Shown here: positions 35,971 through 48,096 of the stretch, one piece after another
Layout of the letters: each line of letters opens with the position of its first letter
How positions within the stretch are numbered: position 1 is the stretch's first letter
Assembly: GCA_017547655.1 (NCBI GenBank)
Contig: JAFYPF010000027.1
Coordinates: 9,356 to 73,355, forward strand
Source: Clostridia bacterium
GTDB taxonomy: Bacteria > Bacillota > Clostridia > Oscillospirales > CAG-272
Reading direction: 5' to 3'
Length of the DNA stretch: 64,000 bases
The notes under the pieces: generated by a model
Told to the model about the DNA's origin: nothing
The model's database searches: none
Seen by the model: the letters and a program-made list of their open reading frames with translations, nothing else
Position numbers and translations under genes: made by a program

Positions 35971-36686
35971 TAAAAGGATATGTTCATTCGATACAAACTC
36001 TCGGAACGCTTGACGGACCGGGAGTTCGTTTCGTTGTGTTTACACAAGGCTGTAACCTGCGTTGCTCGTGCTGTCATAATCCCGATACTTGGAATTATAA
36101 CGATAGAACACAGTTTGCACCCGAAGAAATCGTAAAACGTGTAAAACGATATAAAGAGTATTTTGGCGACGAGGGAGGTATAACCTTTTCGGGGGGAGAG
36201 CCGTTGCTCCAAGCTGATTTTGTTTATGAAACGTTTAGACTTTGTCATTTAGAGGGGATAAATACCTGTCTTGATACCTCGGGAAGTGTACTGAATGACA
36301 GTGTGGTTAAGCTTTTAGGTGAGACTGACGTGGTTTTGCTTGACGTTAAATATACAAGTGACGACTTATATAAAAAACACGTTGGTTGCGATATGGATAG
36401 GGTTTTGAGATTCCTTGACGTGCTTCAAGAGAGGAATATAAAAACGATAATACGTCAGGTTGTTATTCCGACGGTTAATGATTATGAAGAGAACTTTTTG
36501 AAGCTGAAAGAACTTGTCGATAGATATACCGTTGTTCAAAAGGTTGAGCTTTTGCCATTTAAGAATATCTGCACAACTAAATATGATATGTTGAATATTG
36601 ATTTTCCTTTTAGAGATATTCCTTTGCCTAAAGAAAGTGATATGCAAAAATATCAAAATATGGTCAAAAACACCTTGCCGAAATGA
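35967..36686 (+). CDS. pflA: PFL-activating enzyme (radical SAM)
   Basis: [32 protein letters not shown]. Confidence 0.95.
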
Positions 36687-36706
36687 GTTGGCGAGGTGCT
36701 TTTTTG
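36668..36706 (+). terminator. Terminator after pflA
   Basis: CACCTTGCCGA-aatgag-TTGGCGAGGTGC followed by TTTTTT. Confidence 0.75.
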
Positions 36707-36854
36707 TTGGCTAAAAATGTACAATTGATTTTAAAGAAAAAGAGTGGAATCGAAACGGAATTTAGATGTGAAGTGGTGTGATGTACACTTTTGACAAAAA
36801 GTGTGAACAAAAGAAAAATATAAAGAAAACCGACGTGTATTTTCAGTTTTTTTG

Positions 36855-36883
36855 TTGACAATGCGTTTAAAAGAGTGTAGAAT
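36855..36883 (+). promoter_or_regulatory. Sigma-A promoter of the accessory operon
   Basis: TTGACA, 17 bp, TAGAAT. Confidence 0.7.
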
Positions 36884-37062
36884 ATATTATGAATTATTAT
36901 ATATAATAGACGTATTGTTTTTTAGCGCGACTTAATCGATTGAATCGGCGTTTATACAGCAAGAAAAAATTGATACTTTAGATAAAATTTCGTATTTAAA
37001 CAAGGTTGGATTGTCCTCCCCGAAATATTGGGAGTGACCGGTTAGAGAAGGAGATAGAATTG

Positions 37063-40000
37063 ATGAAAAGATCTAACAGACTGTTGGCATTTATTCTTTT
37101 TGTATGCATGGTAATATCGCTTGTGCCTCCGTTGCAAGTAGCTCGTGCCGCTGACATTATTCAGCGATATGAGCTTGATACGGACGGTATTGACGTGGGA
37201 GCTACGTATTTGATTGTCAATACGGGCTCGACCGGAAGCGGTAACGCGTTGCGTTTTTATTACAACAGCTCATTATCGCGCGATTTCCGTAATCAAACGA
37301 TTACTGTAAAGGATGATGCGGGAGTTAAATACATAGAAACTGGATTTACCAATGAGAGTGATTGCGTATTTACTTTTAGCGCAGCTAAAGTTGGATATAT
37401 AACGCATAACAATTACTATATTGACTTGAGCAATAGTAGATATGCGACAAGTAAACCGGGAGAAAGCTTGAACTTTACAAGCGTGGGTGACGGTGCATAT
37501 CGTATTTACTATTCGTCGTATTGGAGTTCTTACTATCTTCGTTATTCCAACTCGGATTGGGCGAGATCAACGACTTCTTCTACGGTATATCTTTACAAGC
37601 TGACAGAATATGTTGTAGGTCATGACGTTGAATACAACGGAAACGGCTATACTGCGGGTACACTCCCTCAAAATGAATATTACATAGACAGCGGAAGCGA
37701 ATACACAGTAAAAGCTCCGAGCGAGGGCTTTAAAATGGATGTTGGCGAAGATACGTATCTTTTCCGTTGTTGGAATACAAAGGCTGACGGTTCGGGTGTT
37801 GAATATGAGCCGGGAGAGAAGTTTACTGTTGAAAGCGACGTTGTATTGTATGCGCAGTGGTATCAACAAACAAAGCATACGGCTTCGTTTATTTCGCATT
37901 ACAACGGTGTTCAGACTGACCTTAATGATATCATCGGAGAGGACAAGAACTTTTATATTCTTCTTGATGGTGTAGAGGGCGCGTATATTCCGCTTATAAA
38001 GAGAGGCGACGGTGTATATAGCGCAAAGGTTGTTGACAATGGAATTTATGTTGTCTACGCCAAGAATGCTGACGGAAAATATGAAGAGGTGCACGGCCAC
38101 AAGATTGCGATTTATAATTTTGACGGCACGACAGACTGTTTCCATTACAGCGTTTCGTATAATACAAACGGAGGTGTTTGGGCTGATGGAGAAAATCCCG
38201 GAGATGTAATTCATCATTCTGGAGAATCGGCATTTGTTACAAATGCCACACCTACTCTTAAAGGCAACTTGTTTATGGGTTGGGAAGATAAGGACGGAAA
38301 CCTTTATGCTCCCGGACAACATCTCACGTCTGCTATAGATGAAAAGATTGAGCTTACAGCAAAGTGGCAAGAGACTATTGATATTACGGTAAACGTTGTT
38401 ATAAATCATAATGCTGTTACTACAGGCTCGGATAATAATAATAAGAGACATGAACTTTCTTTCACGTTGACTCGTGAAGAGAACGGCGTGAATATGCCGA
38501 TTGAGAATAAGGTTTTGGATTCGGGATACGTTTATGACGCCGAGAATAATACAACTACATACACTGTTGTATATACCGATATGCCTCAAGGAACATATCA
38601 CGTGTCAAGTGCGAAGAGTTCGTATGAGACTGTGATTACTCACGAGGGCAAGTCCGATGATGATCAGACAATTTTTATCAATCATACTTTTGCTCCTGAA
38701 AATTTTGACCTTTACTTTGATGTGATTGTTAAGGCTGACGACGAGGGCGAAAAGACATTGATGCCCGATAAGGTTAATGTTAAGGTTAGCTATTGGGGTT
38801 ACAACGAGGACAATGTTCTTGACTGGCATATTATTACACAGCAGGACGGAACAAAAGCGCCTATATCCGTTGAAATTGATGAAAACGGCAAGGGAGTAGG
38901 TTATTACCCTGTATGGGGCTTCTGGTCGGGCACTGATTATGCTTATGACTACAGAATTGAGATTACGTCATATGTTTTGCCCGACGGCTCTATTGTTCCT
39001 GTTAATAGTAAAGATAAGATTAACTTTTATATTGACGGCACAAACTTGTACACTGCTGTGATAACAATTGAGTCCGCAACCGAAAACGGGGAAGAGGGCA
39101 GAATTCCTACGTATCCCGCAGATAGTAAAACTGACCTCAATGGCGCATATGTTGGCAGCGGTGTTCAGATAGGCTTGCCTACGGCTACGATTGAAATCAA
39201 TTCTTATAAGGTTACATTCGATGCAGGCGAAGGAAGTGTTAACGGCAGCTCAAAGGTAGTACTTAATAACCAATACGTATGTCCCGATTTAGATAAATAT
39301 GTTGCAACTCCTTCAGCTGATGATAAGACGTTTATTTGTTGGGTTGACGCAGAAGGCGAGCCCGTTACGAATATGAACGGTCAGTTCCTGAATTCTGACG
39401 TAACCTACTATGCAAGATACAACGATGACGCCGTTGTTTCGGGTAAGGTTGTAGTAGACGTACAGTATGATTATAACGGAGAAACAGCAACCATTCACGA
39501 AATTGACCGTGTTAATAAGGTTATGGTTATTCTTCAGAAGAAGATTAACGATTACTACAACGACGTTGATTCAATGATTGTAAACATTGTATACAACAAA
39601 GACGAAAACGGCAATGTTCTTGACGGCGTTGGCGAATATAAGTTCGAAGACGTTCTTAATGACGGAACCGAATATAGAGTAAACGTTTTCGCGTATAACT
39701 TTACGACAACTTATGACAATGATGCTGACGGTGAATATTCCGAAGAGCAGTATGTAGTTGATATAGACCAATTCAGAGCCGAGGGAAAAGTTGATGTAGA
39801 ACTTGGTTTTGCGCCCGACAGCTATCAGCAGTATGTTCGCGTAGACGCTTCTCTTATTGAGGAATCATTGCGTCCAACGGCTGTTTTGGTTCGGTATTAT
39901 TACAGAGACCTTGGCGACGTTCACAACTTTCAAATTATTTCTCAGCACACAGTATCTCCTAACGGAGTAATGGTTTCTCTTGATAAGAGTACTGCTCAAG

Positions 40001-43000
40001 GTGTTGGATATGAATACGTTTGGAACTGGCACACCAACGGTACGCCTTACGAATACCAAGCAGAGGTTTACCTGGTGTACGGCAACAACCTTGAGGGCGC
40101 ATACAGCGAAGAGGGTATTGAGTATTCTTCCGATAGACCTTACTTTGTTGAATACGGTGCAGTAAGCAGTTATTCAATGCAGTTGGAGCAGACTGATAAT
40201 GTTCTTGAAATTACCCTTGTACCCAAGGAATATCCGATACATTTGGATTTGAATTTAGGCAACGATGTCGGAACACATGTGTATGGTCTTGAAGAGTTTA
40301 TGGTTGATGACAATTCGAGCGAAGACAAATATGTGTTTATGCATACTTGGAGCTTTACAGAAACCTTTAATGCATACCCCTATAGAGAGGGATACGTATT
40401 TAAGGGCTGGACAAGCAGTAACGAACAAGAGGTTTACATCAAAGAAGACGGTACAATATACGTAGGTAATACGTTGGCGAAGAGTGTAACCCTTACGGCA
40501 AATTGGGAAAAACTTGAGGGAACAGATTACATAATTCGTTATCTTGAACTTAATACAGACAAGGTTCTTCTCGGTGCAAAATCAGTTAGCGGAACCGCTG
40601 TCGGTTCAACGATTGTCGCGGCTGAATATGCTCGTGAAATTGACGGATATGCCTATGCGGGTGCTTATGTTGACGGTGCTTATCACGATAAAACCGAAAA
40701 TCCCGCTATGGTTATTTCGAATAATCCGGTTAAGAATTTGATGGTAATTTATTATTTGCCTGACGGTTCAGACGGTTATACCGAGCAGGTTGAAAGTAAC
40801 CTTTCTATAAGCAAGGACGCAGTTCTTGAAAATGACGGGACTTATACGATAACGTTTGACACATATACGAAGGACAATCCCATTACTACACTTATCCAAC
40901 AGAATACTCCCCTTGATATCGTTCTTGTGCTTGACCAATCGGGGTCATTGGCTGAAAACGACTATGAGTATTTGAATGCACTTCAAAGTGCGCTTGATAA
41001 TTTCGTTGCATCTGTTGCTAACCACGGCAGAATTAACGGTGTTGACCACAGAATAGCTATGGTTGGTTATGCAGGTAATGCGAGTGATATACATTCATCT
41101 GATCCTACCAAACCTACGGGCGGAAAAGAGACAGACAGCTGGATAAATACGGGTGTATTTGATTCCAACGGTGAGTTCCACCTTTATAACGTAAAGGGAT
41201 TTGTATATACAGAGCTTAAGAATTTAAATTCTATTACGGCAAACGGTATATATTATACAAAGGTTACAGTTGACGGCAAAGAGAAGTATTTATTGCTTAC
41301 TCACTACGATGAATATCGTCACTTGATTAACGAGGAACAGGCAAGAATTGCTTCCCTTAAGGGCGAGACTATTTATGGATACGTGTTTGACGATAATGAT
41401 GTCGGTTCATTCGTTAAGCTTACAAGAAACAGCAGTGGCTTGTGGCTCTATGGAGATAAACAGCTTTATTCAGGAGAAAAATTCTTTACTTACCATACCG
41501 ACGTGTGGACACATCGTGACGGAATAAATGCTCGTGAAATACACGCATACGGAGTAGGTTCGAATTATACACCTATAGACGGTCATAGCGGAGTATACAC
41601 TCGTGAAGAAACTACCGGAACATCGTTCCAGCATAGTATTTACGAAGATGCATTGATGCCTGTATCTGTTGGCGCTATGGGCTCGGGAGGAACAAACCCC
41701 GGACTTATAAAGGCAACACAGTCTTTGGGCGCTGACGGTGCTACACGTGCAAGTTACGGTATGGAAATGGCTAACAAGATTCTTGCTGCGATGCCCAAGG
41801 ATGACGACGAGGGACGTGTTCGTCTCGTTGTTATGTTTACCGACGGTGAGCCCGGTTATCTTGGATTCCAAGACGGTGATTACTATCAGCAGGGTGTAAC
41901 CGAAGCTAATAATGCTATAACTCTTGCTTACGATACAAAGAACGTTTACGGTGCGTACGTGTATACGATAGGTCTTTACGAGAGTGCAGGTGTAGAAGCG
42001 ACAAGTGATGTTTCATATTATATGAATGCGCTTTCTTCTAATTATCCCAACGCAAAGAAAATGGATGATATAAAGACTACCATTAAATATACAGCTGCGA
42101 CACAGGGAACAGCCCTTGAAGCTAACGGAAAGTTCTATGTAAAGATTGGATCCAAGTATTATTTGATTGACTATGGTTACGTAACTGTAAACCGTCGTAA
42201 TCAGTGGTGTTGGTATTACCAAAACGGTTCAACTATAACTTCTATTTCAACTGCTACGTATCCTACTGTAGATAAAAACGGTAAAGTTGGAAACTATAGT
42301 ATATTTATACAATCCGGTGGATTTGCCGAAACTTCAAACAAAGGATACTATGCAACGACCGAAAGTTCGGAGCATTTGAAGGATTATTTCGAGAACGTTT
42401 TACGAGATATTACAACAAAGATTACCACAGAGATTGTTCTTGAGAATGATACGATTCTCCGTGATATAATGAATCAAGGCTTGGTTCTTACCGACGGAAC
42501 GGTAATTACCGTTTATACGCAGGAAGGAAACTATGACCTTGAAAACAAGAAGATAGTTTGGGCTGTAGATGAAAATGGACAGCCTATCCTCGAAAAGAAG
42601 GTTAGTCTTGAGGTTGGCAAAGATGATGACAAAGTTATAACCGATCCCGAAAGCGGAGTTTCGATTTTGGTTTATAATTACGGTAAATCAAATGCAACCA
42701 ACCCCGACAAAGCGGACTACGCTCCTCATACAGTTGACGTTACGGGATATAATTTTGCTGAATGGTATATCAGCGAAGAACATACCCGCGGATACAAGAT
42801 GGTTGTTACAATCACTCGAGTTGAAGCGAGAGATGACGTTGAGTGGGGAAGAGCTACCTCTACAAATAACGAAAAGTCAGGACTTTGGTTACCTGCTGAC
42901 GCAAGCGGATACAGAGAGCTTCTTCTCCCGTTTGACCAGCCTACCACCATTTTTGTTGAACGTGCATACGTTCTCGATTATGGCAAGTCATTTGAACTCA

Positions 43001-44625
43001 GCGGTTGGTATTTCGACGATGAAGACGGAAAGAATGCTACAGCTGTTCACGTTGACTGTGATATATCAAACGGAATGAACTATTTTGCTCCGTCGTCGCC
43101 GAATACCGAAAATACAAAAGATTCGGAATACGGTAATCTTAAATACGGAAACGTAAGTGTTGAGAACGGAAAGGTTACTTATACACCTACAAGTACAAAC
43201 TGGGGCAGTTATGATCAGTTCTACGTATTCGGAAATACGTGGAGAAAGACCGTACTTGCTCAAGATGCAAATGAAAATGGCAACCTTTGGAATAAGGTTA
43301 CTGTAATTCCTGCGAATAACATTTATTACGAAGACAGCTTTATTACGAAGAGTGATGATGTACAGAACGGTATTGAAGGATTTACGTTTGTCGGCGAGTG
43401 GGAGATTGTTGGAGAATCCGATAACAATGTAGAAATTCCCGAGCATATTGAATCTGCTCCTTACGGAGACGTACACGGTTGGACTGATTCGCTTGGCGAT
43501 GATGAAGCATTTACCGACGGTTCTGCTCACTTGGCGGGCGGCAACGGTACTATGGGGGCTCAGGCAACATTTACGTTTACCGGTACAGGTGTTGACGTTT
43601 ATACGTTTACAAACAATAAATCGGGCAGAGTTGTTGCTTCATTGAGCAGAATAACAACCAATCCCGACGGAACAAAGGTTTCGACGTTTGTTCAATCGAT
43701 TTCTATGGATAACCTGGCAATGTCAGGCGATTACTATTCGATACCGACAATTTCATTCTCAAAGCTGACATACGGTACATATTCCGTACAGCTTGTAGCT
43801 ACGGCGGCATATTCGGTAGAAACGGGAATGAGATATGAATACTACATTGACGGTATTCGTGTATACAATCCTCTTGGCAATGCTACAAATTATATGACGA
43901 GTCTTGTTAAGGACGCGTACGAGCTTGAAACAAACGCTGTATTTACCGAAGTTAGAGATATACTTCTTGCCGCAAAAGACTTCAATACCGATCTTCCCAA
44001 CGGTGATAACGGCGAAATGGGCGCTGTCTTTATAGACTGGATAAAGAAAGGACAAGGCGCAGAGGATGATGAGATTGGCGAAGGTGTACCGACATACAAC
44101 GTAGGCACATTTAAAACTTATGGTCCTAAAAATGAAGCATATTTAAGCAAGGGACAAGCTGTAGTATTGAGGGTTGATGAAGCTAACTATTATTTTGTAG
44201 GTATGAAGAGTCTTACGGGCGAAGAAGTTATAGTTAACGTAAGTGGAATTGAACTTTCGGAGCCGACTTCGATTAAATTCAGTCATACATCAGATCTCTA
44301 CTATAGAGTAACACCTGTAAACGGATATATTGTAATTCAAAACAACAGTACAAACGGTGCGCTTTTGGCGTTGACCAAGCTTCGTGCGACGAATCTTACA
44401 CAGCCGGTTGTAAACGGTGGAATTCTTTCGATTTCTTCTGATGAAGCTGTTGCGATGATGAGTGATTATACCGCATATATGATTGAGAAACAGAACGAAG
44501 AACCCGAGGTTATTCCGCCTGAAGATTTGGAAGTAATTCCTTCACTTGAAGAACAGAGTGAAGCAAACATTTTATTGGCAAACGAATTGTTTAACTCGGT
44601 TCGCGTGTGGCTTGATGAAGAATAG
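37063..44625 (+). CDS. Giant secreted adhesin-like protein (~2520 aa): signal peptide, InlB-B/Listeria-Bacteroides-type repeats, MucBP-like module, vWA domain, beta-rich C-terminal region
   Basis: Signal peptide MKRSNRLLAFILFVCMVISLVPPLQVARA; about 4 repeats of type F.GW...LYAQW/LTAKW/LTANW; MIDAS LDIVLVLDQSGS (~40915-40947) and VVMFTDG (~41830-41847); AAGGAG RBS. Confidence 0.8.
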   Translation: MKRSNRLLAFILFVCMVISLVPPLQVARAADIIQRYELDTDGIDVGATYLIVNTGSTGSGNALRFYYNSSLSRDFRNQTITVKDDAGVKYIETGFTNESDCVFTFSAAKVGYITHNNYYIDLSNSRYATSKPGESLNFTSVGDGAYRIYYSSYWSSYYLRYSNSDWARSTTSSTVYLYKLTEYVVGHDVEYNGNGYTAGTLPQNEYYIDSGSEYTVKAPSEGFKMDVGEDTYLFRCWNTKADGSGVEYEPGEKFTVESDVVLYAQWYQQTKHTASFISHYNGVQTDLNDIIGEDKNFYILLDGVEGAYIPLIKRGDGVYSAKVVDNGIYVVYAKNADGKYEEVHGHKIAIYNFDGTTDCFHYSVSYNTNGGVWADGENPGDVIHHSGESAFVTNATPTLKGNLFMGWEDKDGNLYAPGQHLTSAIDEKIELTAKWQETIDITVNVVINHNAVTTGSDNNNKRHELSFTLTREENGVNMPIENKVLDSGYVYDAENNTTTYTVVYTDMPQGTYHVSSAKSSYETVITHEGKSDDDQTIFINHTFAPENFDLYFDVIVKADDEGEKTLMPDKVNVKVSYWGYNEDNVLDWHIITQQDGTKAPISVEIDENGKGVGYYPVWGFWSGTDYAYDYRIEITSYVLPDGSIVPVNSKDKINFYIDGTNLYTAVITIESATENGEEGRIPTYPADSKTDLNGAYVGSGVQIGLPTATIEINSYKVTFDAGEGSVNGSSKVVLNNQYVCPDLDKYVATPSADDKTFICWVDAEGEPVTNMNGQFLNSDVTYYARYNDDAVVSGKVVVDVQYDYNGETATIHEIDRVNKVMVILQKKINDYYNDVDSMIVNIVYNKDENGNVLDGVGEYKFEDVLNDGTEYRVNVFAYNFTTTYDNDADGEYSEEQYVVDIDQFRAEGKVDVELGFAPDSYQQYVRVDASLIEESLRPTAVLVRYYYRDLGDVHNFQIISQHTVSPNGVMVSLDKSTAQGVGYEYVWNWHTNGTPYEYQAEVYLVYGNNLEGAYSEEGIEYSSDRPYFVEYGAVSSYSMQLEQTDNVLEITLVPKEYPIHLDLNLGNDVGTHVYGLEEFMVDDNSSEDKYVFMHTWSFTETFNAYPYREGYVFKGWTSSNEQEVYIKEDGTIYVGNTLAKSVTLTANWEKLEGTDYIIRYLELNTDKVLLGAKSVSGTAVGSTIVAAEYAREIDGYAYAGAYVDGAYHDKTENPAMVISNNPVKNLMVIYYLPDGSDGYTEQVESNLSISKDAVLENDGTYTITFDTYTKDNPITTLIQQNTPLDIVLVLDQSGSLAENDYEYLNALQSALDNFVASVANHGRINGVDHRIAMVGYAGNASDIHSSDPTKPTGGKETDSWINTGVFDSNGEFHLYNVKGFVYTELKNLNSITANGIYYTKVTVDGKEKYLLLTHYDEYRHLINEEQARIASLKGETIYGYVFDDNDVGSFVKLTRNSSGLWLYGDKQLYSGEKFFTYHTDVWTHRDGINAREIHAYGVGSNYTPIDGHSGVYTREETTGTSFQHSIYEDALMPVSVGAMGSGGTNPGLIKATQSLGADGATRASYGMEMANKILAAMPKDDDEGRVRLVVMFTDGEPGYLGFQDGDYYQQGVTEANNAITLAYDTKNVYGAYVYTIGLYESAGVEATSDVSYYMNALSSNYPNAKKMDDIKTTIKYTAATQGTALEANGKFYVKIGSKYYLIDYGYVTVNRRNQWCWYYQNGSTITSISTATYPTVDKNGKVGNYSIFIQSGGFAETSNKGYYATTESSEHLKDYFENVLRDITTKITTEIVLENDTILRDIMNQGLVLTDGTVITVYTQEGNYDLENKKIVWAVDENGQPILEKKVSLEVGKDDDKVITDPESGVSILVYNYGKSNATNPDKADYAPHTVDVTGYNFAEWYISEEHTRGYKMVVTITRVEARDDVEWGRATSTNNEKSGLWLPADASGYRELLLPFDQPTTIFVERAYVLDYGKSFELSGWYFDDEDGKNATAVHVDCDISNGMNYFAPSSPNTENTKDSEYGNLKYGNVSVENGKVTYTPTSTNWGSYDQFYVFGNTWRKTVLAQDANENGNLWNKVTVIPANNIYYEDSFITKSDDVQNGIEGFTFVGEWEIVGESDNNVEIPEHIESAPYGDVHGWTDSLGDDEAFTDGSAHLAGGNGTMGAQATFTFTGTGVDVYTFTNNKSGRVVASLSRITTNPDGTKVSTFVQSISMDNLAMSGDYYSIPTISFSKLTYGTYSVQLVATAAYSVETGMRYEYYIDGIRVYNPLGNATNYMTSLVKDAYELETNAVFTEVRDILLAAKDFNTDLPNGDNGEMGAVFIDWIKKGQGAEDDEIGEGVPTYNVGTFKTYGPKNEAYLSKGQAVVLRVDEANYYFVGMKSLTGEEVIVNVSGIELSEPTSIKFSHTSDLYYRVTPVNGYIVIQNNSTNGALLALTKLRATNLTQPVVNGGILSISSDEAVAMMSDYTAYMIEKQNEEPEVIPPEDLEVIPSLEEQSEANILLANELFNSVRVWLDEE

Positions 44626-44636
44626 GGAGGGAAAAA

Positions 44637-44891
44637 ATGAAGCAAATTTATTCAAAACCATTTATATCACTAGAAGTTTTTTCGCTTACCCAATCTGTTA
44701 CTCGTGATTGCGATAATATGTCGATTCCCAAAGATCAACTTACGTCAAATGATCCTATAAATTGCAAATGGGAATTGGGCGGAGGTTTTACAGTCTTTAT
44801 GGTTAGTAACGGTTGCACCATTGAAGGAGAAAATATGGGGTACGCATGTTATAACAATCCCGGAGAGGGACAGTTTATATTTCGTTCGTAA
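44637..44891 (+). CDS. Putative RiPP precursor peptide (84 aa)
   Basis: Strong GGGAGG RBS; leader MKQIYSKPFISLEVF (YxxP); Cys at 25, 43, 60, 71; C-terminal Ser; upstream of kinase, radical SAM and RRE genes. Confidence 0.75.
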   Translation: MKQIYSKPFISLEVFSLTQSVTRDCDNMSIPKDQLTSNDPINCKWELGGGFTVFMVSNGCTIEGENMGYACYNNPGEGQFIFRS

Positions 44892-44944
44892 CGATATACT
44901 ATTTCGTATTTGAATTTATAATTAAAGCAAAAAAACGTGTGTAT

Positions 44945-45793
44945 ATGAATAAGTATTATTTAAGTTTTATGGGACTGCGCATTTTATTGTGTGTGTCCCA
45001 TAAAATCAATATTTCAGAAAAAATGCGGATATTTTTAGATAAACCGCAGACGAGTTATGATTGCACTATAATCATACAAACAAAAAAAGAGCTTCCGGAT
45101 AGAACGGAAGACGGTGTATGGCACGGACTTGAGTATTACGATTATATCGACGGAGAAGCGCTGACGTATCATTTTAATGAAATCGGAGGAAAGCCTTTTG
45201 CCGTTACACGTTTTTTGAAAAACGGTGATATTTTTATTGACGTATGTTCGGGATTTGAGTCATACTTTGAAGGCTCTACGGGGATTTTTAATCGTATTGG
45301 CGTTGAAATGATGCTTTTGAAATACGGTGGAATGTTGTTGCATGCATCGTTGATTGAGTATCAAGGAAAGGCGATTGCTTTTACGGGGCCGTCGGGGATA
45401 GGGAAATCTACCCAAGCGGATATTTGGCACAAACGCCTTGGCGCAGATATAATTAACGGTGACCGTGCGGCTATTCGTAAGGTAGACGGAGAATGGAGAG
45501 CTTATGGTTCTCCTTTTGCAGGAACGTCGGGAATATATAAAAACAAAAACGCCCCGCTTTCTGCCATTGTTGTTTTGAAGCAATCGAAGGAAAATAAACT
45601 TGTTCCATTGAATGCAGCGGAGGCGTTTGGGATTATTTATTCAGAAATATCTATTCATCAATGGGACAAAAGATTTGTCTCGGATATAACCGATATTTAC
45701 CTTGATTTATTGAATGCCGTACCTGTTTATTTATTGGAATGTCTTCCAAACGAAGACGCAGCAACTATTTTAAAGAAAGGCTTATTGCTATGA
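44945..45793 (+). CDS. HprK-related P-loop kinase
   Basis: LLHASLI...FTGPSGIGKST...INGDR...GSPFAG. Confidence 0.75.
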   Translation: MNKYYLSFMGLRILLCVSHKINISEKMRIFLDKPQTSYDCTIIIQTKKELPDRTEDGVWHGLEYYDYIDGEALTYHFNEIGGKPFAVTRFLKNGDIFIDVCSGFESYFEGSTGIFNRIGVEMMLLKYGGMLLHASLIEYQGKAIAFTGPSGIGKSTQADIWHKRLGADIINGDRAAIRKVDGEWRAYGSPFAGTSGIYKNKNAPLSAIVVLKQSKENKLVPLNAAEAFGIIYSEISIHQWDKRFVSDITDIYLDLLNAVPVYLLECLPNEDAATILKKGLLL

Positions 45794-46899
45794 TTACGAA
45801 TCCGGTGTCACCTCCGATAACAGAATATTTATATAGCAGGGCATCAAATGCGGGAGTTCCCATTAGCGGTACTTTTGAGCTGACTCCGTTGTGTAACATG
45901 GATTGTAAGATGTGCTACGTTCGTCTTTCGTGGAAAGAACAGGAAGCGATTTGTCGGATATACGATGCCGAGAAGTGGCTCGAGCTGGCAAGAGAAGCGA
46001 GAGATGCAGGTATGCTGTATCTTCTTCTTACCGGAGGCGAACCGTTTTTGTATCACGGTTTTCGACAGGTTATGGAGGGGTTAAACAAGCTTGGGTTAAT
46101 TGTTTCGATTAACTCAAACGGAACGCTGATTGACGAGACTGTTATATCCTGGCTCAAGAATTGCCCGCCTATGAGGATAAATATCAGTATATATGGAGCT
46201 TCCGATGATACGTATGCGAAATTATGTAATAACCCGAGAGGCTTTACACAGGTTACAAATGCGATTCGACTTCTTAAGGAAGCCGGTATTTCTGTTAAAT
46301 TGAATTGCAGCTTAACCCCCGATAATGCAGATGAACTTCCGCTCATTGTGGAGTATGCAAAAGAAAATGATTTGGTTTTGCAGGTTGCAACTTATATGTT
46401 TCCGCCTTTGCGAAAAGCGGAGGATAATATTGGCCAAAATTCTCGCTTTACCCCCGAACAGGCGGCATATTATACAGTGTATTCAGATTATTTACTTCTT
46501 GGCACAGAGCGTTTTTTAGCAAGAGAAAATCGAGTGATCGGTGACATAGAGGATGACTGCGCAGGAATTGGCGACGGGATAAGATGCAGAGCAGGAAAGT
46601 GCAGTTTTTGGATTACGTGGAAGGGAACTATGACTCCTTGCGGTATGTTTCCCGAGCAAGATTTACCAAATGTTTTTGAGATGTCATTCTGTGATGCCTG
46701 GGAGAAGGTAAAGGAATATGCATCAGGCATTGTTCTTCCGTCAAAATGTGCGGGTTGCAGTGCAAAAGATGATTGTCGTGCTTGTGCGGCGATGGTTATT
46801 ACAGAAAGCGGTAGTTTTGATAAGGTTCCTCAATACAGATGTGATATGACTCATTCGTTTAGAACACAATGGGAACGCGTTAAGGAGAAGATACAATGA
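45790..46899 (+). CDS. Radical SAM/SPASM peptide maturase
   Basis: CNMDCKMC, TGGEP, SNG; SPASM motif C-x12-G-x4-C...Cx2Cx5Cx2C...C; ATGA overlap with the kinase stop. Confidence 0.88.
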   Translation: MITNPVSPPITEYLYSRASNAGVPISGTFELTPLCNMDCKMCYVRLSWKEQEAICRIYDAEKWLELAREARDAGMLYLLLTGGEPFLYHGFRQVMEGLNKLGLIVSINSNGTLIDETVISWLKNCPPMRINISIYGASDDTYAKLCNNPRGFTQVTNAIRLLKEAGISVKLNCSLTPDNADELPLIVEYAKENDLVLQVATYMFPPLRKAEDNIGQNSRFTPEQAAYYTVYSDYLLLGTERFLARENRVIGDIEDDCAGIGDGIRCRAGKCSFWITWKGTMTPCGMFPEQDLPNVFEMSFCDAWEKVKEYASGIVLPSKCAGCSAKDDCRACAAMVITESGSFDKVPQYRCDMTHSFRTQWERVKEKIQ

Positions 46900-47825
46900 A
46901 AAGAAACAGCTTACTAATACTTTTGGGTGTTATAGTTATCGTTATACTGTTGGTGATTTCTATTGTATTGAAAAGCGGAACAGATAAAGATACGCCAATA
47001 GATGAAAACGGACCTGATATAACAAGTGGCGTTGGTGACACTACAAGCTCTCAAACAAATGCTACGCCGACGACTAATGCGTCTCCTGAGACTGATTCCG
47101 AAGCGCCAACTCCCGACACAACTACAGGTTCATCAACTGTTGTTACAACAGAGGTTACGACGGGACCTCAAGCGACTCTTCCGGCCGATTTACCTCCGGG
47201 GGTGGTAATTCTCCCCGATGATGATGGTACATCCGGAGAAAATGCAGGTGTAGAATTTCCGTGTAAGATTGACGGATATGAACTTGTGATTGAAAAAATT
47301 GCGAGTTACAAGGGGCTTTTTGTTGAACACGGCACGAATGTGATGGTTGACTCCGTTGCTATGCTTCTGGTTGATAACAAAGGCGAGTTTCCTATAGAAT
47401 ATACACAGTTGTCTGTGCAATACGGGAATGAAACGCTGGTGTTTGATATAACAGCGCTTCCGCAAGGGGAAAAAATTGTAGTGCAAGAAAAGAACGGAAA
47501 GACTGTTCCAGAGGGAAAGGTTGATTCTGTTAAAGCCATGATTGTACAAAAGGCATCAATAGATATGTCCGAGGGACAAGTGTCTGTTGTTGATAATGGG
47601 GATAATACACTTACAGTAAAGAACTTGACAGACAAGACAATACCGACTATTCGTATTTTTTATAAATATTATATGCAAGACGAAGATGTTTTTGTAGGCG
47701 GAATTGCTTTTACGGTTCGGCTTACACGAGTTGGCGCGGGTGAAAGCATAACTATTCAACCCTCACATTATACATCTAAAACAAGCAAGGTTGTAATGGT
47801 TTTGACTTACGATTCAGAGGTGTAA
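46896..47825 (+). CDS. Membrane-anchored protein with a Thr/Ser/Pro-rich stalk and beta-rich C-terminal domains
   Basis: N-terminal hydrophobic anchor; TTSSQTNATPTTNASPETDSEAPTPDTTTGSSTVVTT linker. Confidence 0.7.
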   Translation: MKRNSLLILLGVIVIVILLVISIVLKSGTDKDTPIDENGPDITSGVGDTTSSQTNATPTTNASPETDSEAPTPDTTTGSSTVVTTEVTTGPQATLPADLPPGVVILPDDDGTSGENAGVEFPCKIDGYELVIEKIASYKGLFVEHGTNVMVDSVAMLLVDNKGEFPIEYTQLSVQYGNETLVFDITALPQGEKIVVQEKNGKTVPEGKVDSVKAMIVQKASIDMSEGQVSVVDNGDNTLTVKNLTDKTIPTIRIFYKYYMQDEDVFVGGIAFTVRLTRVGAGESITIQPSHYTSKTSKVVMVLTYDSEV

Positions 47826-47829
47826 TACT

Positions 47830-48096
47830 ATGAAGTTGAAAGGCGATTTTGTTGTTCGTAGTGTAATGGACAATAACGTTGTAATTCCCATAGGGCAAAC
47901 TGCATTAAAAATAAAGGGTATGATTCTTTTGAATGATGTTAGTATGGTAATTTGGGAATGCTTATTAAACAAGTGTGACGTTGAAACTATTGTTTCGGCA
48001 GTTACGGATAAATTTGAGGTGTCCGACGCTGAAGCTCGCACAGATATTATTGAATTTTTAGATTTGTTGCGCAAAGCGCAGCTATTGGATGAATGA
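47830..48096 (+). CDS. PqqD-family protein / RRE #2
   Basis: GMILLNDVSMVIWECL...VTDKFEVSDAEARTDIIEFLDLLRKAQLL. Confidence 0.87.
   Translation: MKLKGDFVVRSVMDNNVVIPIGQTALKIKGMILLNDVSMVIWECLLNKCDVETIVSAVTDKFEVSDAEARTDIIEFLDLLRKAQLLDE

Follow-up and report, generated by a model that had tools for sequence, protein, structure and literature searches.

A four-cysteine peptide gene linked to radical SAM, PqqD-type, and HprK-like kinase genes in Clostridia as a likely precursor gene of an LPP-related maturation pathway

An 84-amino-acid (aa) open reading frame (ORF) with a YxxP motif near its start and four spaced cysteines raises the question of what kind of peptide it encodes and which enzymes would mature that peptide. 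The ORF lies in a 64,000-nucleotide stretch of contig JAFYPF010000027.1 from a Clostridia bacterium (assembly GCA_017547655.1), referred to as the window; this contig is C26 of genome G000, which is 84.6% complete. The initial annotation, made from the sequence, had read the ORF as a putative precursor of a peptide that is made by the ribosome and modified after translation (RiPP). The ORF likely encodes the precursor peptide of a maturation pathway that depends on a RiPP recognition element (RRE) and is related to the linear polyphosphorylated peptide (LPP) and phosphorylated lasso peptide systems, in which the peptide would be bound by a PqqD-type protein, modified by a radical S-adenosylmethionine (SAM)/SPASM enzyme, phosphorylated by an HprK-like kinase, and exported. 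The earlier reading is supported in outline; it had overlooked the adjacent HprK-like kinase, the terminal serine, the membrane protein, the giant surface protein, and the link to the LPP family.

The peptide gene and its ribosome-binding site were positioned as follows.
44637..44891, plus strand: putative precursor peptide gene, 84 aa, with a Y5xxP8 leader, four cysteines, and an F-x-S C terminus
44625..44631, plus strand: ribosome-binding site GGGAGGG, read from the sequence, 5 nt before the ATG of the peptide gene

The frame begins with the ATG at 44637 and ends with a stop codon at 44889-44891, and its 84-aa product reads MKQIYSKPFISLEVFSLTQSVTRDC...CYNNPGEGQFIFRS, with cysteines at positions 25, 43, 60, and 71, a CYNNP motif at positions 71-75, and a C-terminal FIFRS. 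On re-reading, the span, length, sequence, cysteine positions, CYNNP motif, and FIFRS end given in the initial annotation were all exact, and the strong ribosome-binding site that it reported corresponds to the GGGAGGG above. A gap of 12 nt separates the stop of the upstream gene, which codes for a 2,539-aa protein, from the start of the peptide gene, and a hairpin scan detected no terminator directly after the peptide gene.

Homologues of the peptide were abundant and strongly conserved. A word-indexed search recovered 19 homologues of 72 to 84 aa (53 to 100% identity), and a scan of one genome per species yielded 23 loci with the peptide gene, mostly in Faecousia/Oscillospiraceae metagenome-assembled genomes. 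Among these 23 copies, the median nonsynonymous diversity (pN) was 0.26, compared to a synonymous diversity (pS) of 0.70, and dN/dS was approximately 0.19 across the pairs with unsaturated dS (172 of 253). A profile search against 1.84 billion representative proteins, each representing a 50%-identity cluster, produced 1,044 matches with E values no higher than 0.001, of which 138 reached 1e-10 or lower. Among the best 150 matches, 147 were small proteins, and of these, 132 ended in serine, 138 contained YxxP within the first 20 residues, 135 carried CY..P (Y72 and P75 in the window peptide), and 122 had exactly four cysteines, with the remainder having five to seven. Residues M1, Y5, P8, C25, C43, C60, C71, F82, and S84 were invariant in an alignment of 58 diverse members, as was a hydrophobic residue directly after Y5xxP8 in the family alignments. 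The 84-aa ORF is a real gene under purifying selection and a member of a large unannotated family, which is sharply defined and comprises at least approximately 1,000 50%-identity clusters.

Compared to the NCBIfam and Pfam databases, including the models for known precursor classes, the peptide had no matches, and the ESM Atlas clusters retrieved for it and for a 309-aa protein encoded nearby were all labeled "hypothetical protein." The four-cysteine family was detected in 1 of 400 genomes in a class-level scan (the window's own genome) and in 4 of 401 genomes in an order-level scan, and its breadth therefore comes from metagenomes. A search of sequencing runs returned gut-metagenome DNA runs from two studies and no RNA run among those found. 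No signal peptide was found on the 84-aa peptide, and the AlphaFold2 (AF2) model of the peptide alone was of low confidence (mean predicted local distance difference test [pLDDT] score, 52.6).

The genes surrounding the peptide gene were annotated as follows.
37006..44625, plus strand: giant surface protein, 2,539 aa, with Flg_new repeats and VWA (Pfam) and an N-terminal signal/transmembrane segment
44939..45793, plus strand: HprK-like P-loop kinase homologue, 284 aa, with a GTG start at 44939 and relatives aligning from the ATG at 44945
45739..46899, plus strand: radical SAM/SPASM enzyme, 386 aa (Pfam Radical_SAM, 9e-24; SPASM, 8e-4)
46896..47825, plus strand: 309-aa membrane-anchored protein, with an N-terminal transmembrane helix, a Ser/Thr/Pro-rich linker, and a conserved C-terminal domain of approximately 190 aa
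47830..48096, plus strand: discrete PqqD-type RRE, 88 aa (Pfam PqqD, 1.1e-13)
48093..52506, plus strand: Wzz/BY-kinase fusion with a (GY)n tail, CpsB phosphatase, Ig-like surface protein, and second Wzz/BY-kinase fusion
52560..54284, minus strand: MsbA-like ABC exporter, 574 aa, with ABC_membrane and ABC_tran domains and no peptidase domain

Linkage between the peptide gene and these neighbors was found at every level of sampling. The kinase and radical SAM genes adjoined the peptide gene in 23 of 23 genome loci, and genes for the 309-aa protein (21/23), PqqD (20/23), a giant-protein homologue upstream (20/23), and the ABC exporter (18/23) recurred with them; most of the missing genes corresponded to contig ends. 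Locus L025 contained a rearranged cluster that retained the peptide, kinase, radical SAM gene, exporter, and BY-kinase set and lacked the giant gene and a detected PqqD. The BY-kinase/CpsB block was present in 18 of the 21 genome loci that reached that far and was not found in the distant metagenome loci; because it is missing from L015, L017, and L021, this block is considered accessory.

The 23 genome loci are close kin, and wider samples were therefore examined. Three genomes from other families and genera of the order encoded peptides that were approximately 30% identical, with the same leader, four cysteines, a CYHxP motif, and a terminal serine. The kinase gene adjoined the peptide gene in all three, with the radical SAM and PqqD genes adjacent in two of the three and a giant-protein homologue upstream in two of the three. 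Genome G091 had no radical SAM gene beside its peptide and kinase genes and carried a 42%-identical copy on another contig, and an S26-like peptidase gene was present in the G326 relative. A metagenome search with P0087, a distant member of the peptide family, identified 17 loci (L094-L110) with members approximately 30 to 40% identical to this query, in the gene order giant protein, peptide, 309-aa-like protein, kinase, radical SAM enzyme, and PqqD. Kinase genes were found in 10 of the 17 loci, radical SAM genes in 9, and PqqD genes in 4, with the remaining loci cut by contig ends, and a giant-protein homologue lay upstream of the peptide in every locus whose upstream sequence exceeded 1 kb (11/11). 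Conservation of the peptide beside homologous radical SAM/SPASM enzymes and the PqqD RRE, on which the initial annotation had made its reading depend, was thus observed in the genome, distant, and metagenome samples alike.

The 88-aa PqqD-type protein is predicted to be an RRE of the lasso/LPP type, which binds YxxP leaders. Its profile was most similar among PDB chains to TbiB1, a lasso leader-binding protein (E = 1.2e-12, full length), followed by PbaB1 (9x90; 2.1e-6) and LppB (9x8z_B; 3.4e-5), and the NCBIfam lasso PqqD model matched at 1.2e-7, below its cut-off. Residues N35 and D72 align with N33 and D70 of LppB; in the family alignment, D72 was present in 15 of 15 sequences and N35, read by eye, in 13 of 15. 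According to the report on the LPP family, the asparagine of LppB fixes the kink at the leader proline and the aspartate holds the leader tyrosine, with N33A nearly abolishing binding and D70A reducing it, and paeninodin-type RREs, which prefer tryptophan, carry glycine at the asparagine position (PMC13381572). The Asn/Asp pair in the window protein is in keeping with the invariance of Tyr5 and Pro8 among the peptides, and the YxxP leader proposed in the initial annotation thereby gained a matching RRE within the same cluster. In the proposed pathway, the PqqD protein would bind the Y5-x-x-P8-x-hydrophobic leader as a β-strand, with a hydrogen bond between Asp72 and the tyrosine and with Asn35 fixing the proline kink, as in LppB. 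After Y5xxP8-hydrophobic, the peptide continues as x-E-x-F-x-L-x-Q-S-I-A, compared to the LPP consensus YxxPxVLxHQxIxFETxxS, and Q-S and E-T fall in register by eye. By analogy with the register of LppA (Tyr at -16) in the same source, the leader may end near S20. A predicted complex of the PqqD protein with the peptide gave no answer (score, 0.31; mark, 0.32) and counts neither for nor against binding.

The radical SAM enzyme contained CX3CX2C at C52/C56/C59 and SPASM cysteines at C283, C288, C301, C337, C340, C346, C349, and C368, and all three Fe-S cysteine motifs were conserved across its homologues. The closest solved chains were SkfB (3e-17) and entry 5v1q (4.6e-8), and no NCBIfam maturase model scored above its cut-off (PapB, 51 of 340 bits; SkfB, 67 of 300; AlbA, 52 of 850). 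A hidden Markov model (HMM) of the leader was run on the 29 best kinase-family loci, covering 1.5 kb on each side, in genomes that are kin, such that the counts are not independent. Small ORFs beginning with M-K-x-Y-x-K-P were found beside HprK-like genes in other Clostridia, with very different cores; a shared leader followed by varied cores is a hallmark of RiPPs. Where a radical SAM gene adjoined (7 loci), all 12 peptides contained two or three core cysteines, and the 8 peptides from the 8 loci without a radical SAM gene within 1.5 kb contained none; no peptide was found by the leader HMM in the other 14 loci. Five of the cysteine-free loci were extended by 5 to 8 kb, and still no radical SAM gene was found. 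Core cysteines track the adjacent radical SAM gene, which is the pattern expected if the enzyme acts on cysteines. In the proposed pathway, the RRE would hand the peptide over to the radical SAM/SPASM enzyme for action on the four invariant cysteines, and the most likely products would be Cys-to-carbon thioether bridges of the sacti or ranthi type.

These related loci in other Clostridia comprised two cluster types, both embedded among capsule and surface genes. One contained genes for CpsB, an S26-like peptidase, an ABC protein, PqqD, a radical SAM enzyme, peptides, the kinase, Wzz, and a BY-kinase, and the other contained genes for PqqD, an ABC protein, a 345-aa protein, a peptide, the kinase, an SLH protein, and Wzz.

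The kinase has an HprK/P fold. Its AF2 model (pLDDT, 92.9) was matched by Foldseek to HprK/P and PEPCK (E of approximately 1e-5; probability, 1.0); a PDB sequence search using the profile of the kinase gave only a weak match (HprK/P, E = 0.17), and the fold search settled the assignment. NCBIfam matches were below cut-off (ScmC, 7.9e-8; HprK_rel_B, 1.1e-5). H135, K156 (within PSGIGKST), and N173-G174-D175 were invariant in the family alignment, and the family occurred in 150 of 399 sampled Clostridia genomes. Profile-profile alignment (hhalign) to HprK-like proteins from loci of other Clostridia that contain PqqD, B2, PF14907 (NTP_transf_5), and an ABC exporter gave a probability of 97.8% (E = 1.1e-12; 259 columns). 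As reported, the kinase of the phosphorylated lasso pathway (paeninodin) phosphorylates the C-terminal serine of the linear precursor (PMC9266682), and LppK phosphorylates LppA, placing several phosphates on core Ser3 (PMC13381572). The window kinase would phosphorylate a hydroxyl residue of the peptide, for which Ser84 (F-x-S-COOH) is the best candidate, as in paeninodin-type precursors. The product would then be exported by the MsbA-like ABC pump, the best NCBIfam match of which was MsbA (2.4e-79, below cut-off) and which shared 31 to 33% identity with its homologues, the exporters encoded in the related peptide/kinase clusters of other Clostridia. Outside the cell, the 309-aa membrane-anchored protein and the giant surface protein would probably act on or with the product.

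Among known systems, the LPP pathway is the closest, and the window cluster is a radical-SAM-bearing relative of it. The LPP family (Popov et al., Nat Commun, May 2026) consists of LppA, LppB (RRE), LppK (HprK-like kinase), LppS (SpI-like peptidase), LppD (MsbA-like exporter), and LppN (NTP-transferase) (PMC13381572). Its clusters sit in capsule loci of Bacilli, its precursors are 35 to 200 aa long with a YxxP leader that is cut by LppS, and LppS, a signal peptidase I of archaeal type, was the feature that led to the discovery of the family (PMC13381572). Shared with the window cluster are a discrete RRE with a Tyr-binding Asp and a Pro-fixing Asn, an HprK-like kinase, an MsbA-like exporter that has no peptidase domain, an N-terminal YxxPx-hydrophobic motif followed by a long core, capsule-type neighbors (Wzz/BY-kinase and CpsB), and the lack of a lasso cyclase. 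The window cluster differs in lacking an SpI-like peptidase and a PF14907 NTP-transferase, both of which are encoded on other contigs of the genome, and in adding the radical SAM/SPASM enzyme, four invariant cysteines, the F-x-S end, the 309-aa protein, and the giant protein. Beyond YxxPx-hydrophobic, its leader departs from the LPP consensus while keeping a similar register, core Ser3 is not conserved, and the cluster resides in an Oscillospiraceae-type Clostridium, not in a relative of Bacillus. The words "radical," "SPASM," and "Clostridi" are absent from the main text of PMC13381572, and literature searches did not find a radical-SAM-bearing version of an LPP-type pathway described. The peptide, which the initial annotation suggested may be a new scaffold, corresponds to no NCBIfam or Pfam model, and the pathway type has a precedent in the LPP family. 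In gut Clostridia, this locus combines the RRE/kinase/exporter chassis of LPP with a radical SAM/SPASM enzyme and the large precursor family, and the invariant Y5, P8, four cysteines, F82, and S84 make the pathway directly testable.

Phosphorylated lasso peptides, such as paeninodin (PadeK and ThcoK) and pseudomycoidin (PsmK and PsmN) (PMC9266682 and PMC5067487), share with the window cluster an HprK-like kinase acting on a linear precursor, a conserved C-terminal serine, and a PqqD-type B1 protein that binds a [Y/W]xxP leader. They differ in that the window core has approximately three times their length, the window cluster includes a radical SAM enzyme, and its kinase carries N-G-D versus S-D-D in relatives. 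Membership in the lasso peptides themselves was rejected, as PF13471 (B2) had no matches in the genome at its 84.6% completeness, and a lasso cyclase was likewise rejected, as the only strong PF00733 match was a 618-aa open frame on contig C14, off the window contig. Of 400 Clostridia genomes, 6 encoded B2 domains, and these 6 did not overlap with the 150 that carry the kinase family. Loci of this B2 type (L086-L090; 6/400 genomes) contained PqqD, one or two HprK-like genes, and PF14907, with an ABC exporter beside them in two, and in L086, the B2/PqqD/HprK-like/PF14907 set was located among capsule genes. No Asn-synthetase-type cyclase was seen among the 25 neighbors scanned at these loci, which look like cyclase-less relatives of lasso clusters.

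The sactipeptide and ranthipeptide systems (SkfB, AlbA, PapB, and CteB types) resemble the window cluster in the SPASM enzyme, its three Fe-S cysteine motifs, and an adjacent cysteine-bearing substrate. They differ in that the window RRE is discrete rather than fused, a kinase provides an extra step, and neither the maturase nor the precursor belongs to a named family. CrpA/CrpC provides a protein-sized ranthionine substrate, and the window substrate is comparably large (PMC13692751). The SynChlorMet (ScmC/D/E/F; TIGR04248-04251) and GeoRSP (TIGR04302/04303) families share the combination of HprK-like, PqqD-like, and radical SAM/SPASM proteins, and their models were the best or near-best NCBIfam matches for the window kinase and radical SAM enzyme. 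Every score was less than one third of its cut-off (ScmC, 32 of 125 bits; GeoRSP radical SAM, 76 of 400; GeoRSP PqqD, 20 of 100). To our knowledge, these families are defined only by genome context. Neither name was met among the matches listed by a literature search, which were filled by unrelated uses of "ScmC."

Several observations weigh against the proposed pathway. No leader peptidase (SpI/S26-like or B2) was found in the cluster. Both leader and core were conserved (pN of 0.21 versus 0.28), and many RiPPs have hypervariable cores. The window kinase family has N-G-D where relatives from the PqqD/B2 loci carry S-D-D, and with glycine in place of the first aspartate, its activity could differ. 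The LPP phosphosite has no counterpart, as the equivalent of core Ser3 is not conserved in the peptide family, in which the C-terminal serine is invariant. In addition, residues of approximately 35 to 73 of the peptide weakly matched a two-Cys repeat of approximately 40 residues (C..GG..tF...G.C.i.a.q.G..Y), which occurs in 10 to 20 copies in giant proteins P0044, P0078, and P0160 (1,609 to 3,596 aa), with single-repeat scores of 5 to 9 bits. Given this resemblance, the cysteines could instead form disulfides; the similarity may also represent convergence on a β-hairpin.

Alternatives to the proposed pathway were also weighed. The peptide could be an LPP-like substrate on which only the RRE and kinase act; the radical SAM enzyme would then have another target, such as the giant protein, the 309-aa protein, or something other than a peptide, and the cysteines would form disulfides after export. 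The RRE, kinase, exporter, and leader are indeed the parts held in common with LPP, related clusters work without a radical SAM gene, the G091 peptide and kinase genes lack an adjacent one, and the core is weakly similar to the two-Cys repeat. This alternative is nonetheless considered unlikely, as related cores contain cysteines only if a radical SAM gene adjoins (12/12 versus 0/8 peptides), all 23 genome loci have this gene beside the peptide gene, and even G091 carries its 42%-identical copy elsewhere. A discrete RRE beside a SPASM enzyme is, moreover, usual for peptide substrates, as in PqqD/PqqE-type systems. The 84-aa product could also be a structural or accessory subunit of the giant protein (a cap, chaperone, or anchor) that undergoes no RiPP processing, with the leader-like N terminus serving in recognition or export. 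The giant-protein homologue directly upstream in 20/23, 2/3, and 11/11 informative loci, the 12-nt gap, the conservation of the peptide along its whole length, and the lack of a leader peptidase in the cluster are consistent with such a subunit, which is rendered improbable by the L025 module without a giant gene, by a peptide with neither a signal peptide nor a confident fold, and by a leader that is common to short, varied peptides of kinase/RRE clusters without a giant gene. That the ORF is a chance frame or miscalled gene, as its short length and the lack of a name for it in any library might suggest, is scarcely credible and is already refuted by purifying selection, hundreds of full-length homologues with invariant residues, the strong ribosome-binding site, and synteny. 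The reading of the ORF as the precursor of an RRE-dependent pathway that includes the radical SAM enzyme is therefore preferred.

Candidates for the components lacking in the cluster were located on other contigs of the genome. Four signal-peptidase-like matches were found, all off the window contig, with TIGR02228 matches on C17, C10, and C28. Contig C17 (720-2485) carries two adjacent archaeal-type (SipW-like) signal peptidase genes, near which searches with the RRE, kinase, and leader HMMs found no match. The single PF14907 nucleotidyltransferase of the genome is encoded on contig C27 (18469-19086), with no other pathway component nearby. A second HprK-like gene (236 aa; kinase-profile E = 7e-35) lies on contig C24 (L063:8484-9194) between a sulfatase-family gene and a gene for a sigma-70 region-4 protein, and no peptide, RRE, or radical SAM gene was found near it.

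The giant surface protein and the 309-aa protein provide a lead to the biological role of the peptide; the linkage to the giant protein itself suggests such a role. The portion of the giant protein that is kept upstream of the peptide is the C-terminal 400 to 500 residues, approximately, which contain no Pfam domain, and Pfam searches on four segments of the protein added no domain in the last 739 aa. In the 309-aa protein, E144, E198, K257, H291, and S297 were conserved among 34 homologues, and no known family was identified in Pfam, NCBIfam, or the ESM Atlas; the conserved residues could mark an extracellular enzyme, perhaps one that performs the missing processing step. More speculatively, and with considerable doubt, the peptides may be dedicated partners of the giant surface protein instead of free antibiotics or signals, acting as cross-linked, Ser-phosphorylated (possibly sugar-extended), exported anchors or adaptors that tie this protein, covalently or with high affinity, to the envelope or its polysaccharide, with the 309-aa protein carrying out an extracellular step. 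Pseudomycoidin offers a precedent for such extension by sugars. If true, an anchor or adaptor role would represent a new way to build a Gram-positive cell surface from a RiPP-like module.

Another pairing of peptide and surface-protein genes was observed in the cysteine-free cluster type (L068 and L070-L073), in which the kinase gene was followed by a gene for an SLH-domain protein of 530 to 550 aa in five of five extended loci. A Wzz gene was located beside the SLH-domain gene in L068 and L071, and a protein of 317 to 361 aa was encoded upstream of the peptide gene in this type.

The plus-strand gene string in the window is bracketed by terminator-like hairpins at 36671-36698 and 52517-52557, and the remaining regulatory features were as follows.
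36791..36883, plus strand: two sigma-70-like promoter matches, weak and from a consensus scan only, ahead of the giant gene and after the hairpin
52517..52557, no strand: strong terminator-like hairpin with an 18-bp stem, separating the end of the operon from the convergent ABC gene

The operon probably starts at the promoter matches. The remainder of the window consists of housekeeping genes, and no glycosyltransferase, polymerase, or flippase gene was found in its 64 kb despite the two BY-kinase fusions and CpsB. The first Wzz/BY-kinase fusion (48093-49586) has a long (GY)n tail, which was also present in the rearranged L025 cluster.

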